The notes under the pieces are model-generated. The model was not told the origin of the DNA and ran no database searches. It saw nothing but the letters and a program-made list of their open reading frames with translations. Shown in pieces: positions 11,257 through 26,436 of a stretch of DNA of 64,000 nucleotides (the stretch's first letter is position 1; every line of letters starts with the position of its first letter). Position numbers and translations under genes: made by a program. Origin of the DNA: Candidatus Omnitrophota bacterium (lineage in GTDB: Bacteria; Omnitrophota; Gorgyraeia; Zapsychrales; Fredricksoniimonadaceae); contig JBGAJA010000002.1 of NCBI GenBank assembly GCA_044225175.1, positions 472,991 through 536,990 on the forward strand. The letters are read 5' to 3'.

Positions 11257-11292
11257 TGCTTCGCTAAAAAGCTTTCGCGTTTAGCTTCGCAG
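11257..11292. repeat. 36-bp element tgcttcgctaaaaagctttcgcgtttagcttcgcag; left copy of a perfect inverted-repeat pair
   Basis: Exact reverse complement of 26401-26436 (checked base by base). Intergenic between the giant CDS and the first GalT-like gene. A partial extra copy ttcgctaaaaa lies at 11296-11306. Confidence 0.9.
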
Positions 11293-11317
11293 AATTTCGC
11301 TAAAAAAAATAATCAAG

Positions 11318-12307
11318 GTGCTCATGCCTCAAATACGTAAAGACTCAATTGTAAATCGCTGGGTAATTGTTGCAACAGAAAGGGCCCGCCGTCCGGCTGC
11401 TTTCATTGAACCTGTCAGTCACACGACAGATCCCAAGGATTGTCCTTTTTGTAAAATCAATGAGCCAACACTTTTTACTAATGGTCGGGTGAGTGTTTAT
11501 AAAAGTGCTACACCTTTTTTTGACAATTCTAAGCCTTTTGTCCGAGAGAAACATGGTCTGTATGAAACCTCTTCAAGTTGGGGCAGTCACGAAGTTGTGG
11601 TTGAATCCAAAGAGCACATTGCCAATATGGCAGATTTACCTTTAGAGGATGTTCAAAAAGTCTTTGAATCTTATGCCCAACGCATGTCTATTCATCGTCG
11701 CGACCATAGCATTCGCTATGTGTTAGCTTACAAGAATTACGGCATTGCAGCAGGCGGCAGGCCAATTGGACATGCGCGTTCTCAGATCATGGCAATTCCG
11801 GTGAACCCCATTCGTGTTAAAGATAAAATTAAAGGGGCCAAACGTTATTTTGATTTCCATGAACGCTGTTTATTTTGTGATTTGATTCGTCAAGAACGTA
11901 AGGATTCCCAGCGGGTGATCCTGGAGAATCGAGAATTCTTGGCGATCATGCCCTTTGCCTCTCGTTTTCCTTTTGAAACATGGATCATCCCTAAACGACA
12001 TTCGTGTGATTTTGCCTCAGGCGTTGCAGGCCATGAAGATCAATTGGCGCAGATGATGAAAGAACTTTTATTGCGATTTAAAATTGGGTTAAATGATCCT
12101 GCTTATAACTATGTGATTCAATCAGCGCCTTTTGAAGAAGGCGGCAGATATAAAGAATACCCAACCATAGAAGAAGATTATCATTGGCACATTGAACTGA
12201 TGCCAAGACTGACCCGTGTGGCTGGTTTTGAACGCGGAACAGGCTTCTATATTAACCCCATTCCTCCAGAGATGACGGCGGAATTTTTAAGAGATGTGAA
12301 AATCTAA
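11318..12307 (+). CDS. galactose-1-phosphate uridylyltransferase (GalT)/HIT-family protein, paralog 1; active-site motif reads HARSQ (second His replaced by Arg)
   Basis: CPFC zinc-knuckle (DCPFCKINE), a second CxxC (CLFCDLI) and GalT-like overall layout. Aligns with the downstream paralog, which has the canonical HAHSQ. Confidence 0.65.
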   Translation: MLMPQIRKDSIVNRWVIVATERARRPAAFIEPVSHTTDPKDCPFCKINEPTLFTNGRVSVYKSATPFFDNSKPFVREKHGLYETSSSWGSHEVVVESKEHIANMADLPLEDVQKVFESYAQRMSIHRRDHSIRYVLAYKNYGIAAGGRPIGHARSQIMAIPVNPIRVKDKIKGAKRYFDFHERCLFCDLIRQERKDSQRVILENREFLAIMPFASRFPFETWIIPKRHSCDFASGVAGHEDQLAQMMKELLLRFKIGLNDPAYNYVIQSAPFEEGGRYKEYPTIEEDYHWHIELMPRLTRVAGFERGTGFYINPIPPEMTAEFLRDVKI

Positions 12308-13302
12308 TGGCTCAATTACGCAAAGACCCCATTGTTGGACGTTGGACGATGATTGATACGGATCATCTGAAGGGGCCTAGTGATTTCGTTAAAGAAGATC
12401 ACAAACCTGTCCATGAGGCTATTTGTCCTTTTTGTCCGGGACGAGAGACTCGTACGCCAGCGGAATTGGATGCTAATCGTCCTTCCGGGGCAGCTGCCAA
12501 AATCTCCGACTGGAAGGTCCGTACTATCCCTAACAAATTTCCGGCCCTTTTACATGAAGGAGTTTTGGAAAAAGAAGGAGTGGGGATGTTTGATGTGATC
12601 TCCGGCTACGGGGCCCATGAAGTTGTGATTGAAAGCCCTCAACACAGTAAGCAGATGGCCGATTTGACTCCGGCTGAGATGGTTCTTGTGTTAAATCAGT
12701 ATCAACGCCGCTATAAAACACTTGCTTTAGATTCAAAGTTGAAATATGTCATCATTTTTAAGAACTTTGGCAAGTCTGCTGGGGCTACCGTTGAACATGC
12801 CCACTCACAGATCATTGCTTTGCCTATGGTTCCTAAATACGTTCTTGAAGAAATTGAAGGGGCAGAAGAGTTTCATAAAATGAACGGCGCTTGCGTATTT
12901 TGCGAGATTTTAAAGCAAGAAAAGAAAGATCAAGACCGCATTGTCTGTGAGAACAGCTCATTTATTAGTTTTTGCCCTTATGCCCCACGCTATGCCTTTG
13001 AAACATGGGTGATGCCTCAGGTCCATCAAGCCCATTTTGCAGATTTGGATGAAGCTCAGATAGGTAGTTTAGCTGAGCATCTTTTGGATGTCTTGGGTCG
13101 TATCAAAAGATGTTTGTCTAATCCTTCCTATAATTTCTATCTGCACACATCTCCCATAAATTATGGCCGTCCTGACTGTTACCACTGGCACATTGAGATT
13201 ATTCCTAAGCTTTCCCGCAGTATTGGCTTTGAATGGGGCACAGGTCTACAGATCGTGCCAACCTACCCTCACGATGCTGCCAAGCATTTAAGAGACGTCT
13301 AA
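12307..13302 (+). CDS. galT: galactose-1-phosphate uridylyltransferase (GalT)-family nucleotidyltransferase/phosphorylase, paralog 2 (canonical HxHxQ)
   Basis: ICPFCPGRE zinc site, EHAHSQ (HxHxQ nucleophile motif), second CVFC motif. Start overlaps the stop of paralog 1 by 1 nt. Confidence 0.7.
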   Translation: MAQLRKDPIVGRWTMIDTDHLKGPSDFVKEDHKPVHEAICPFCPGRETRTPAELDANRPSGAAAKISDWKVRTIPNKFPALLHEGVLEKEGVGMFDVISGYGAHEVVIESPQHSKQMADLTPAEMVLVLNQYQRRYKTLALDSKLKYVIIFKNFGKSAGATVEHAHSQIIALPMVPKYVLEEIEGAEEFHKMNGACVFCEILKQEKKDQDRIVCENSSFISFCPYAPRYAFETWVMPQVHQAHFADLDEAQIGSLAEHLLDVLGRIKRCLSNPSYNFYLHTSPINYGRPDCYHWHIEIIPKLSRSIGFEWGTGLQIVPTYPHDAAKHLRDV

Positions 13303-13396
13303 ATCAGTATTGACAAAATGTTAGGGATGGATATCATTGTTAGGTTTGTAATCTTATTCAACCCCATTTCGGGGAGTTTATTCAAGGAGGAGTTAG

Positions 13397-14458
13397 ATGG
13401 CTATTAAAGTTGGAATCAATGGTTTTGGACGTATTGGACGCATGGTTTTTCAAGCAATTTGCGATCAAGGTCTTCTAGGTAAAGAGATCGATGTGGTTGC
13501 AGTTGTTGATGTTTCTACAGATGCAGATTATTTCGCCTATCAAATTCGCTATGATTCAGTTCATGGTCATTTCAAACATAAAGTAACAACCGAAAAGTCA
13601 GATGCTTCAAAAACAGAAGCTGATATTTTTGTCGTTAACGGTAACAAAGTTAAATGTGTAGCCGCAACTAAGACTCCTGCAGAACTTCCTTGGAAGGCCT
13701 TAGGGGTTGATATTGTTATCGAATCCACTGGTCTTTTTACCGAAAGCGAAAAAGCTCAAGGTCACATCCAAGCTGGTGCTAAGAAAGTTATTATCTCAGC
13801 TCCTGCCAAAGGTGATGTAAAGACAATCGTTATGGGTGTCAACGAACAAGAATACGATGATGCTAAACACAACATCATTTCAAACGCTTCCTGCACCACC
13901 AACTGTTTAGCCCCCTTAGTCCATGTTTTATTAAAAGAAGGCATCGGAGTTGAAACAGGCTTAATGACAACCATCCACGCTTATACAGCAACACAAAAGA
14001 CAGTCGATGGCCCTTCTAAGAAAGATTGGCGCGGCGGTCGTGCAGCAGCAATTAACACAATCCCTTCTACAACGGGTGCTGCGAAAGCCGTTGGAGAAGT
14101 TCTTCCTGCCACAAAGGGTAAATTAACCGGAATGTCATTTCGCGTCGCAACCGCAGACGTTTCAGTTGTGGATTTGACCTTCCGTTCTGTGAAAGACACC
14201 TCAATTCAAGAGATTGATGCTTTATTAAAAAAGGCATCTGAAACATACTTGAAGAATATCTTAGGTTATTGCAATGAAGAATTAGTTTCAACCGACTTCA
14301 TTCATGATCCTCGTTCTTCTATCTATGATTCTTTAGCTACAACCCAAAATAATCTCCCAGGCGAGAAGAGATTCTTCAAAATCGTTTCTTGGTACGACAA
14401 TGAATGGGGTTATTCAAATCGTGTGGTTGATTTATTACGTTACATTACAAAGAAATAA
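13397..14458 (+). CDS. gap: glyceraldehyde-3-phosphate dehydrogenase, type I
   Basis: [12 protein letters not shown]-binding N-terminus, [12 protein letters not shown] active-site Cys motif, [10 protein letters not shown]-terminus. AAGGAGG RBS 6 nt upstream. Confidence 0.9.
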
Positions 14459-25693: not shown

Positions 25694-25731
25694 TTATTGA
25701 CTAAGGACAATGTTTATTTAGAATACCCACC

Positions 25732-26226
25732 ATGTTAGCTTTATTTATTATCACAATTGGAATTCTTTCCCGCATTGTTCTTCACACCCCTAACTTTACC
25801 CCTGTATTGGCACTTGTTCTTTTTGGCGGTATGTATCTTAAAGGCCGTCAAGCTTTGTGGGTACCTCTCATTCTTATGGTGATTAGTGATGTAATCATAG
25901 GGTTTCATGATTCTATGGTCTATACATGGGGAAGTATTGTGATCATTAGCCTTTTAGGTATGTGGCTTAAGAGTCATAAAAACTTGGGCAATGTTTTAGG
26001 GGTAAGTGTTATTTCTTCTATCGTATTCTTTCTAATTTCAAATTTTGGGGCTTTTTTAAGCTTGTATCCACACACCTTATCCGGTTTGCAAGAATGTTAT
26101 ATTGCAGCCATTCCTTTTTATAGAAGCACATTAGTTTCAACAGTAGGTTATAGTTTGGTTTTATATTCTGTCTGGGAATTCCTATTATCTAGACGAGAAA
26201 ATCCGCTCTTAACTAAATTTTTGTAA
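25732..26226 (+). CDS. small 5-TM membrane protein with HTPNFTP motif (transporter substrate-capture-component-like), function unknown
   Basis: Hydrophobicity. The HxPNFTP N-terminal motif is reminiscent of small vitamin-transporter membrane components. Confidence 0.35.
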   Translation: MLALFIITIGILSRIVLHTPNFTPVLALVLFGGMYLKGRQALWVPLILMVISDVIIGFHDSMVYTWGSIVIISLLGMWLKSHKNLGNVLGVSVISSIVFFLISNFGAFLSLYPHTLSGLQECYIAAIPFYRSTLVSTVGYSLVLYSVWEFLLSRRENPLLTKFL

Positions 26227-26231
26227 AACAG

Positions 26232-26400
26232 TATATTTATCAGGGAAACTCTGGTGCGATTCCAGGACAGTCCCGCTGCGGTTGAGTCCGAATGCCTGAT
26301 AGATATTTCATAGCACTCCGCCTACGAGAGAATAGGTTGTTGATGCGCATATATTGAGTAGCCTGCCTGCAGGCTGTGTCAGGGAACACCTCAATCTATC
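26232..26400 (+). promoter_or_regulatory. cobalamin (B12) riboswitch aptamer upstream of the TonB-dependent receptor
   Basis: GGGAAACTCTGGTGCGATTCCAGGACAGTCCCGCTGCGGTTGAG matches the conserved core (GGUGnnAnUCC...CnGnCCCGC...GU). A B12-box-like GTCAGGGAACACC lies 3'. Classic position in front of a BtuB-like receptor. Confidence 0.7.
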
Positions 26401-26436
26401 CTGCGAAGCTAAACGCGAAAGCTTTTTAGCGAAGCA
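26401..26436. repeat. right (inverted) copy of the 36-bp element
   Basis: Exact reverse complement of 11257-11292. Lies between the riboswitch aptamer and the receptor RBS (AAGGAG at 26463). Confidence 0.9.

Follow-up and report, generated by a model that had tools for sequence, protein, structure and literature searches.

Two probable insertions of a dispersed palindromic hairpin account for a 36-bp inverted repeat around a glycan-modification gene block in an Omnitrophota genome

Small palindromic repeats scattered between bacterial genes have been described as repetitive extragenic palindromic sequences (REPs), together with their compound forms, the bacterial interspersed mosaic elements (BIMEs) and the REP doublets forming hairpins (REPINs), and as miniature inverted-repeat transposable elements (MITEs). 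REPs often exceed 100 copies per genome, according to one account (PMC2817692). A further point of reference is physico-chemical, namely the DNA mini-hairpins d(GCGAAGC) and d(GCGNNAGC), which are unusually stable for single-stranded DNA, with melting temperatures of 71-76 °C (Hirao and co-workers; reviewed in PMC13037366). Here, we compare these systems with an inverted repeat in a 64,000-nt stretch (hereafter the window) of contig JBGAJA010000002.1 from a Candidatus Omnitrophota bacterium, where two arms of 36 bp enclose a block of glycan-modification genes. A preliminary description, made from the sequence of the window alone, had offered three explanations for the arms, these being a dispersed REP- or MITE-like family that happens to flank the block, recombination sites enabling inversion or excision of the block, and a shared regulatory or structural RNA element.

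Our analysis favors the first of these. At a probability of roughly 0.75, we consider the inverted repeat to consist of two insertions of a single sub-family of a dispersed hairpin element, and thus to be a by-product and not a device acting on the block. This reading is supported by the presence of the element in at least 31 metagenome-assembled genomes (MAGs), with several copies per genome, by its intergenic placement and by the existence of empty sites. Indeed, when related genomes were searched for further copies, as the preliminary description had proposed, the same hairpin was met between the genes of many Omnitrophota.

The repeat itself is exact. The 36-mer TGCTTCGCTAAAAAGCTTTCGCGTTTAGCTTCGCAG is found at 11257-11292 on the + strand and at 26401-26436 on the - strand with no mismatches, as previously described, and no match appeared in 100 dinucleotide shuffles, with 0 being expected by chance. 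Nowhere else does the 64-kb window match the 36-mer, even with up to three mismatches allowed. In a repeat search, the inverted repeat extends to 39 nt at 97% identity (11257-11295 and 26398-26436), and when compared by eye, the two hairpins correspond over 43 nt (11253-11295 and 26398-26440), with three differences that all fall in the outer stem. Two covariance models run over the window recover only these two copies, at 70 and 61 bits, the next match scoring 11 bits.

Whether the repeat might be missing from an independent assembly, and hence be an artefact, was a concern of the preliminary description. The Logan contigs of SRR28480385, assembled at k=31, break exactly at both copies. One contig begins at window position 26407, 30 nt within the right copy. 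A second contig measures 15,168 bp, exactly as predicted for 11263-26430. As a k=31 graph breaks at a real, exact 36-nt repeat, the breaks at both copies indicate that the repeat is real and exactly 36 nt long in the reads. Contigs that end at the repeat could also be cited in favor of an assembler having created either the repeat or the join across it. However, the breakpoints, including those of the 15,168-bp contig, are just what a real repeat gives at this k, both junctions are syntenic with relatives and the two copies are, at their model scores, bona fide family members; the chance of an artefact is next to negligible. For those assembling or annotating Omnitrophota genomes, there is nonetheless a practical warning here, in that short exact repeats break k-mer graphs at operon boundaries.

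To define the family, one genome per species was scanned with the pattern GCTTCGC-N(4-8)-GCTTTCGC-N(3-7)-GCTTCGC, and covariance models were used in addition. At least about 55 sites present the same hairpin architecture, besides chance matches in G+C-rich coding repeats. Among the matches listed, 24 of the MAGs of origin were labelled Omnitrophota/Omnitrophica, six 'uncultured Planctomycetales/Planctomycetia' and one 'bacterium' (unclassified). Copies with exact boxes number at least 7-8 in two MAGs, the highest count listed being 8, in BS750m-G79, and in 397 kb of element-centred loci the covariance model gave 95 matches. The elements are imperfect palindromes of roughly 43-53 nt (in the window, the core is 36 nt and the hairpin 43 nt) that fold, as single-stranded DNA or RNA, on one plan: an outer stem of 4-5 bp, a box GCUUCGC facing a second GCUUCGC, a variable stem of 5-6 bp and a GCUUUCGC tip. 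Where the boxes face each other, two G-C/C-G pairs stand on each side of a 3x3 internal loop, with UUC opposite UUC (GAA opposite GAA on the other strand), and the tip is a GC-closed tetraloop UUUC (GAAA on the other strand). We refer to the two strands as the UUC and the GAA strand. More widely, the UUC-strand consensus can be written YYCU-N-CUUCGC-stem-[GC]UU(U/G/A)C[GC]-stem'-GCUUCG-N'-AGRR, in which N and N' covary, and the GAA strand carries the boxes GCGAAGC, GCG(A/C/T)AAGC (GCGAAAGC, with the variants GCGCAAGC and GCGTAAGC) and GCGAAGC. Minimal forms, CTTCGC-TAAA-GCTTCG, also exist.

The structure is borne out by covariation. Between the invariant boxes, the spacers vary yet stay complementary (TCAAA/TTTGA, CATGA/TCATG, CCCGA/TCGGG and CAAGC/GCTTG), and the outer stems do likewise. 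Over 52 copies, 91.9% of the cells are paired and nine pairs change on both sides, a result reached in 0 of 500 shuffles and approached by no slid register. A larger set of 90 model-aligned copies shows double changes in 13 of 16 pairs, with 254 compensated cells; being fitted to the model, this alignment leans towards the structure. An array of three GCTTCGC boxes some 12-13 bp apart, bound by a protein as duplex DNA, was considered and rejected, since the spacers covary as a hairpin. Integron attC sites, CRISPR repeats and hairpins of diversity-generating retroelements were rejected as well, as judged from the sequence and Pfam, given that there is no GTTRRRY core, no array and no nearby reverse transcriptase or template repeat. 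When all 4227 covariance models of Rfam were applied, only AdoCbl-II scored above threshold, and nothing meaningful at E<=10 lay over either copy. Viral contigs gave only low-scoring chance matches of 19-34 bits. The searchable literature yielded no account of such a repeat or hairpin from Omnitrophota, and the family thus appears to be undescribed.

All 52 copies whose placement was examined are intergenic, lying between open reading frames (ORFs) or tRNA genes. In 10 of 50 cases, the copy is found exactly 4 nt past the CCA end of a tRNA (ccaTTCT-GCTTCGC), always in the sense of the tRNA, and these ten tRNA genes cover seven kinds (Gly, Phe, Thr, Val, Met, Pro and Gln). About 16 more copies lie within 131 nt of a tRNA gene. 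Most copies are paired with a more degenerate, opposed hairpin 10-70 nt downstream, the order always being UUC and then GAA, as, for example, in the tRNA-Phe/tRNA-Thr spacer of locus L037. Within a doublet, the partners differ in their stems, unlike near-identical copies placed in inverted orientation.

Several observations speak of mobility. Identical copies occur at different loci within one genome, a minimal copy is nested inside the apical loop of another (L099, 2769-2853), and at sites orthologous to those of the window, the element is absent from 11 relatives on the right and from three on the left. We take these empty sites to reflect insertion, rather than loss, and movement would involve a putative enzyme and a single-stranded hairpin intermediate. 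Beside 50 copies, no transposase was seen: 81 flanking ORFs were compared with Pfam, and housekeeping functions account for the 25 top families listed and for 10 ORFs picked by hand. Neither copy in the window is bordered by a direct repeat (CATCC|...|TTCGC and AACCG|...|AGATT, in element orientation), and no conserved GTAG or CGTC is present in the flanks of the copies; where 'GTAG' does occur, in some partner hairpins, it represents one of the states (G-C, A-T, T-A or C-G) taken by a covarying pair. Covariance models found no copy in about 250 kb of the relatives' loci, except for three weak matches in the more distant L141, and no element in 471 kb of still other, more distant loci containing a DUF6580 gene. 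In L141, a perfect-palindrome variant (GGCGAAGCTCAA...TTGAGCTTCGCC) stands directly after a riboswitch terminator (10780-10884), and a weak doublet lies just upstream of the DUF6580 gene (9867-9988). A separate observation concerns MAG STB_166 (L010, L050, L058, L091 and L092), where the hairpin is part of a longer repeated unit of more than 100 nt with further palindromes, such as GCCTGCCTACCGGTAGGCAGG. This unit recurs at no fewer than five loci beside unrelated housekeeping genes and looks composite and MITE-like.

The left copy lies in front of the first GalT-like gene, galT1, where the following features were located:

11238-11246, + strand: extended -10 promoter box TGgTATAAT of the GalT-like operon, the same box being found upstream of galT1 in L121, L123 and L126.
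11253-11295, + strand: left copy of the hairpin element, in UUC orientation on the + strand, with the exact 36-nt core at 11257-11292.
11296-11306, + strand: direct 11-nt partial repeat TTCGCTAAAAA, which repeats element positions 11260-11270 and lies inside a 71-nt segment absent from relatives.
11253-11323, + strand: lineage-specific insertion between promoter and start codon, made up of the hairpin and TTCGCTAAAAAAAATAATCAAGGTGCTC, the latter including the Shine-Dalgarno-like AAGGTG.

In the left copy, the outer stem is ATTCT/AGAAT, the boxes GCTTCGC start at 11258 and 11284, the inner stem is TAAA/TTTA and the apical GCTTTCGC starts at 11271. As RNA, it folds as ATTCUGC-UUC-GCUAAA-..GC(UUUC)GC.-UUUAGC-UUC-GCAGAAU at -19.0 kcal/mol (z -2.2), and it scores 70.3 bits with covariance model R1 and 69.9 bits with R2. 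The internal stem named in the preliminary description thus folds as was claimed (GCTAAA/TTTAGC), and the partial third copy that it reported is also in place. Upstream, a giant ORF with a length of at least 3734 aa ends in a stop codon 55 nt away from the copy. The copy begins some 7 nt downstream of TGgTATAAT, which would place it right at the 5' terminus of the operon mRNA, with transcription predicted, from promoter spacing, to start at about 11253, the first base of the hairpin. In relatives with a galT1 that is 80-82% identical (L121, L123 and L126, with upstream regions anchored by tblastn), the promoter box is kept and the element is missing. The window has 71 extra nt here (11253-11323). 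In L121 (5550-5580) and L126 (about 2985-3016), TATAAT is followed after 7-8 nt by the ATG of galT1, a spacing that implies a leaderless-type mRNA, and in L123 an unrelated leader of about 100 nt precedes galT1. As the hairpin arrives in the window together with the Shine-Dalgarno-like AAGGTG (11238-11326), galT1 seems to present an apparent conversion from leaderless to leadered.

The right copy is embedded in a cobalamin riboswitch, for which the features are:

26234-26305, + strand: AdoCbl-II (cobalamin) riboswitch aptamer, scoring 43.7 bits (gathering score 36.5) and beginning 8 nt past the stop codon of DUF6580.
26353-26358, + strand: candidate anti-terminator strand ATTGAG, complementary to CTCAAT at 26390-26395 and within the GCGCATATATTGAG block, with a pairing deduced from the letters and a presumed role.
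26362-26376, + strand: second small insertion CCTGCCTGCAGGCTG, absent from relatives in a by-eye alignment with L136 and others.
26389-26449, + strand: compound riboswitch terminator hairpin, with a basal stem CCUCAAUC (26389-26396) / GGUUGGGG (26442-26449) that is conserved in relatives and the element as its upper part.
26398-26440, - strand: right copy of the hairpin element, in GAA orientation on the + strand, with the exact core at 26401-26436, in the apical loop of the terminator (61.2 bits with R1).
26451-26461, + strand: U-tract TTTTTTATTTT of the riboswitch terminator, conserved in relatives.
26473-28476, + strand: TonB-dependent receptor gene with Plug and TonB_dep_Rec_b-barrel domains, putatively controlled by the riboswitch and lying outside the block.

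The riboswitch was correctly recognized in the preliminary description, as was the position of the right copy between the aptamer and the AAGGAG/ATG of the receptor gene (26462-26475). In 11 relatives, the empty site reads GCGCATATATTGAG...GGGAAC-CCYTCAATC-(6-10-nt loop)-GRTTGRGG-TTTTTT-AAGGAG-ATG, and the platform of the window matches this, except that TATC, the 36-mer and TGAT replace the loop of 6-10 nt. Within the conserved GCGCATATATTGAG block of the expression platform, the ATTGAG strand is kept in 12 relatives. The compound hairpin measures 61 nt, folds at -27.0 kcal/mol (z -2.5) and is followed by UUUUUUAUUUU. When judged as an intrinsic terminator, i.e. as a G+C-rich hairpin with a U-tract, only the right copy qualifies, and it does so jointly with the basal stem and U-tract of the host; behind the left copy and most family members, there is no U-tract. 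The 15-nt CCTGCCTGCAGGCTG insertion, also absent from 11 relatives, forms a hairpin of its own (AGCCTG-CCTG-CAGGCT, 26360-26375) in the presumed anti-terminator loop. It resembles only the outer stem of the element (CCTGC..GCAGG), with a weak covariance-model match at 26355-26380 (8.3 bits), and could be an element footprint or something unrelated. In the window, L121 and L123, about 15 nt at most separate the start of the aptamer from the stop codon of DUF6580, and the riboswitch is therefore probably inside the operon transcript, gating read-through into the receptor gene. Elsewhere in the family, an element sits atop a longer hairpin (TTTGCCGA...TCGGCAAA) followed by a T-rich run on the - strand of L021 (440-540), much like the riboswitch terminator of the window. 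Nesting within a larger terminator was rejected as a general rule, as only L021 resembles the right copy in this respect.

The course of events that we propose is as follows. The element would spread by inserting itself between genes, with positions just behind tRNA genes and the loops of hairpins already in place as notable targets. One copy would have inserted at the very start of the GalT-like operon transcript and turned a leaderless or short-leader mRNA into one that opens with a stable hairpin ahead of a Shine-Dalgarno-like sequence. Where the same operon ends, a second copy, oppositely oriented, would have entered the terminator of the cobalamin riboswitch at its apical loop and lengthened the terminator hairpin, leaving the basal stem and U-tract intact. 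The two copies may be local hops of one copy, and effects on mRNA stability and on termination would be expected. The window contains 50 genes, 49 of them on the + strand, and a total of only about 1.1 kb of intergenic DNA, with six gaps of 80 nt or more. With so few spacers, any two surviving insertions will 'bracket' something.

What the repeat brackets here can be listed as follows:

11318-26226, + strand: twelve co-directional genes, as given by the ORF list, Pfam and synteny in relatives.
11318-14815 and 25732-26226, + strand: conserved core, consisting of two GalT-like genes, GAPDH and PterinBD-DUF4346 in the former segment and DUF6580 in the latter.
14901-25693, + strand: lineage-specific glycan cargo, comprising a family 2 glycosyltransferase (GT2), a 555-aa unknown, an AsnB-like protein, a 685-aa PMT-like protein, a member of the UDP-glucose dehydrogenase family, a B12-radical SAM protein and a GDSL-like protein.

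The twelve genes reported earlier are thus present, with the Pfam families that had been named. Relatives were found through their TonB receptor and DUF6580 proteins, the receptor homologues being labelled Candidatus Omnitrophota/Omnitrophica. Common to them, in one and the same orientation, is the order PriA-Fmt-GalT-like x2-GAPDH-DUF4346-DUF6580-riboswitch-TonB receptor-...-MTHFR(-). A comparison of gene content between the arms across relatives, which had been suggested, shows a conserved core in a conserved order, and the cargo at 14901-25693 is lineage-specific and is not bounded by the repeats. In the window, this cargo sits between DUF4346 and DUF6580, and elsewhere in the cluster, different sets of glycan-modification genes are inserted in different relatives. 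The bracketed genes do not, as such, form a unit defined by the repeat, since only 14901-25693 is lineage-specific and its boundaries differ from those of the repeats; moreover, synteny with relatives extends across the right copy and covers the core genes inside, and the right copy lies between the two strands of the terminator stem. A composite transposon, or cargo carried between the halves of a doublet, was rejected on the same grounds of syntenic flanks and core and a terminator stem that straddles the right copy.

Some further observations on the locus should be mentioned. DUF6580 is a small membrane protein in a conserved cluster (window 11318-29339, L121 5578-12851, L123 1297-13822 and L126). 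This cluster contains a hot spot of cargo exchange that does not coincide with the repeats (window 14901-25693, L123 3376-7631 and a contig of JGI 3300071358). Most of the window between 29 and 64 kb codes for sugar-nucleotide and glycan-modification enzymes, and no tRNA genes are found in the 64 kb. The giant ORF occupies 1-11202, is open at the start of the window and contains internal repeats of about 380 aa (period of about 1140 nt, roughly at 3000-6300), its only Pfam match being a weak HATPase_c.

If the arms were recombination sites, the segment 11293-26400 would invert, giving phase variation of the glycan-modification operon, or be excised, through a site-specific recombinase or RecA. 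Inverted repeats do stand at both ends, a perfect match of 36 bp in inverted orientation suffices for homologous recombination on rare occasions, phase variation is frequent among surface-glycan loci and the k=31 assembly, the contigs of which stop at the repeat, cannot orient the block. However, the assembled orientation reproduces the ancestral gene order of four relatives and, as the 36-nt repeat is shorter than a sequencing read, should be the majority one. Inversion would, moreover, part the promoter, outside the block, from the operon inside, and would deprive the U-tract and the receptor gene of the aptamer and of the terminator stem's 5' half. In the 12 internal and four flanking genes, Pfam revealed no domain of a recombinase, integrase or transposase, four of these proteins having no or weak matches, and family members elsewhere form adjacent doublets and not pairs that flank genes. 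We thus find recombination at the arms highly improbable, and the second explanation of the preliminary description, with the aptamer inside and its gene outside, a terminator stem straddling the right copy, the ancestral order and no recombinase domain, is not supported. A function at the level of RNA would have the operon leader (11257-11292) pair with the upper part of the riboswitch terminator (26401-26436), either in cis, where the transcript of 15 kb would form a panhandle, or in trans, the partner being the short RNA that results from termination at the riboswitch, and so couple cobalamin status to the stability or translation of the operon through RNase III cleavage of the 36-bp duplex or interference with folding of the terminator. 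Complementarity is perfect over 36 nt, the co-fold is predicted at -71.8 kcal/mol as compared to -17.9 and -26.2 kcal/mol for the separate hairpins (sum -44.1), and the aptamer, 8 nt after the last operon gene, means that both arms may share one transcript. The operon includes a gene for a B12-binding radical SAM protein, and trans-acting RNAs derived from riboswitches are known (SreA, and EutX/Rli55 in Listeria and Enterococcus). Yet two copies of a dispersed element that face opposite ways are automatically complementary, each arm is tied up in a stable hairpin of its own, the conserved operon core of the relatives examined does not include the B12-radical SAM gene and, above all, 11 relatives on the right and three on the left keep the same riboswitch and operon with no arm. 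Given relatives that lack both copies, the third explanation is not supported as a conserved mechanism. An accidental interaction between the two RNAs is possible, a designed function is unlikely, and regulation by pairing of the arms is, on the whole, improbable.

More weight should be given to a role for the family in the host, a view that is compatible with spread by insertion. According to it, copies are kept mainly because they function, whether on RNA, as hairpins that form 3' ends, block exonucleases or direct processing behind tRNAs and genes, or on single-stranded DNA, where they would be read by a conserved Omnitrophota protein. The left copy would then be the 3' hairpin of the giant gene and/or a cap-like 5' hairpin of the operon, and the right copy would reinforce the terminator. 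Several features of the family look more like a signal used by the host than like purely selfish DNA, and these count against reading the arms as mere insertions. At least 31 species share the nucleotides of the boxes and loops, with stems that covary. G.U/U.G pairs greatly outnumber A.C/C.A pairs on the UUC strand, the wobbles concentrating on that strand at 24 vs 1 in the inner helix. Orientation is biased, at 33 vs 15 behind genes on the same strand and 10 of 10 behind tRNAs, with the latter placed so precisely past the CCA of seven kinds of tRNA, and it is in the favored orientation that the left copy follows the giant ORF. REPs are reported in one account as lying mostly downstream of genes and acting as RNA elements (PMC3733652). 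The insertion reading should also be held with some reserve because the census of the source genome is limited to 64 kb (two copies), an exact 33-mer having 0 matches in JGI metagenome contigs, because 'mobile' rests on presence/absence and nesting, there being no transposase, target-site duplication or GTAG/CGTC tag, and because the window copies are ordered UUC then GAA, as in adjacent doublets, so that a single linking event is possible. Against a function in the host, the orthologous sites of the 11 and three relatives work without the element, the right copy is oppositely oriented in its transcript and most copies have no U-tract after them. The strand signals themselves conflict, since wobble pairs and orientation favor the UUC strand, whereas the apical loop variants (GAAA/GCAA/GUAA) fit the rules of GNRA loops and mini-hairpins on the GAA strand. 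We regard a mainly host-used signal as a real, if minority, possibility. Its boldest version, in which the hairpin is a phylum-wide structured signal of Omnitrophota, read by a putative conserved protein, marking the 3' ends of tRNAs and genes and spreading by insertion, is unlikely, although worth stating. Its role could then be factor-dependent termination, processing, or protection of RNA or single-stranded DNA, and each new copy would instantly rewire its neighbors, here by giving a structured leader to a leaderless operon and by remodelling a cobalamin riboswitch terminator; the 36-nt complementarity would also tie the 5' end of the operon to the off-state RNA of the riboswitch.

For the locus, reading the arms as two insertions is deflationary, as it would make the 15-kb glycan block neither a transposon nor a cassette subject to phase variation; mobility of the genes should not be inferred from the repeat. 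The family, in turn, may provide a handle on RNA 3'-end biology or on single-strand DNA transposition in the poorly known and mostly uncultured Omnitrophota.

Among described systems, invertible segments, such as fimS, the capsule promoters of Bacteroides and shufflons, are similar in that inverted repeats flank a segment linked to surface glycans. They possess, however, a dedicated recombinase and two functional orientations, whereas no recombinase domain is present here and the inverted state would break the links at both ends. With the mini-hairpins, the element shares the three GAA-strand boxes, which exactly match the reported mini-hairpin consensus and GNRA-type loops (PMC13037366). Mini-hairpins are, nonetheless, a physico-chemical motif of phage and plasmid priming sites and not a repeat family, and in our case covariation argues for one long hairpin, with the two outer boxes opposite each other. 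Insertion into the apical region of a palindrome, as seen in the terminator loop of the window and in L099, recalls IS1397 and ISKpn1, which insert into REPs (PMC1525189), although these are full insertion sequences (ISs) with transposase genes and the DNA inserted here is only a hairpin. MITEs, such as Correia of Neisseria and RUP and BOX of Streptococcus, are likewise small, non-coding and dispersed, are present or absent between relatives and, like the element, can add promoters, terminators or RNA hairpins to neighboring genes. They usually measure 100-400 bp, with terminal inverted repeats of a known IS and target-site duplications, whereas the element consists of one palindromic hairpin, about 45 nt in size, for which neither a duplication is visible nor a parent IS known. 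The likeness to the REPs, BIMEs and REPINs of E. coli and Pseudomonas is the closest. As described in PMC3733652 and PMC2817692, these are imperfect palindromes of 20-40 nt that fold as single strands, and are strictly extragenic, multi-copy, often in opposed pairs and frequently downstream of genes. Alternating clusters of the BIME or REPIN kind are met in other genomes, as the doublets 10-70 nt apart, whereas the copies in the window are 15.1 kb apart. The element differs from REPs in having no GTAG/CGTC end tag, by which super-families are defined (Di Nocera 2013). No REP-associated tyrosine transposase (RAYT, a Y1 HUH transposase) was seen among the 81 ORFs scanned beside 50 copies. REPs are usually specific to a species or genus, whereas the loop and box nucleotides of this element are the same across at least 31 species, and the strong link to tRNA 3' ends belongs to this element and not to REPs. 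Taken together, the element behaves as a palindromic repeat of the REP/BIME type with MITE-like presence/absence, and it stands outside the named REP super-families.

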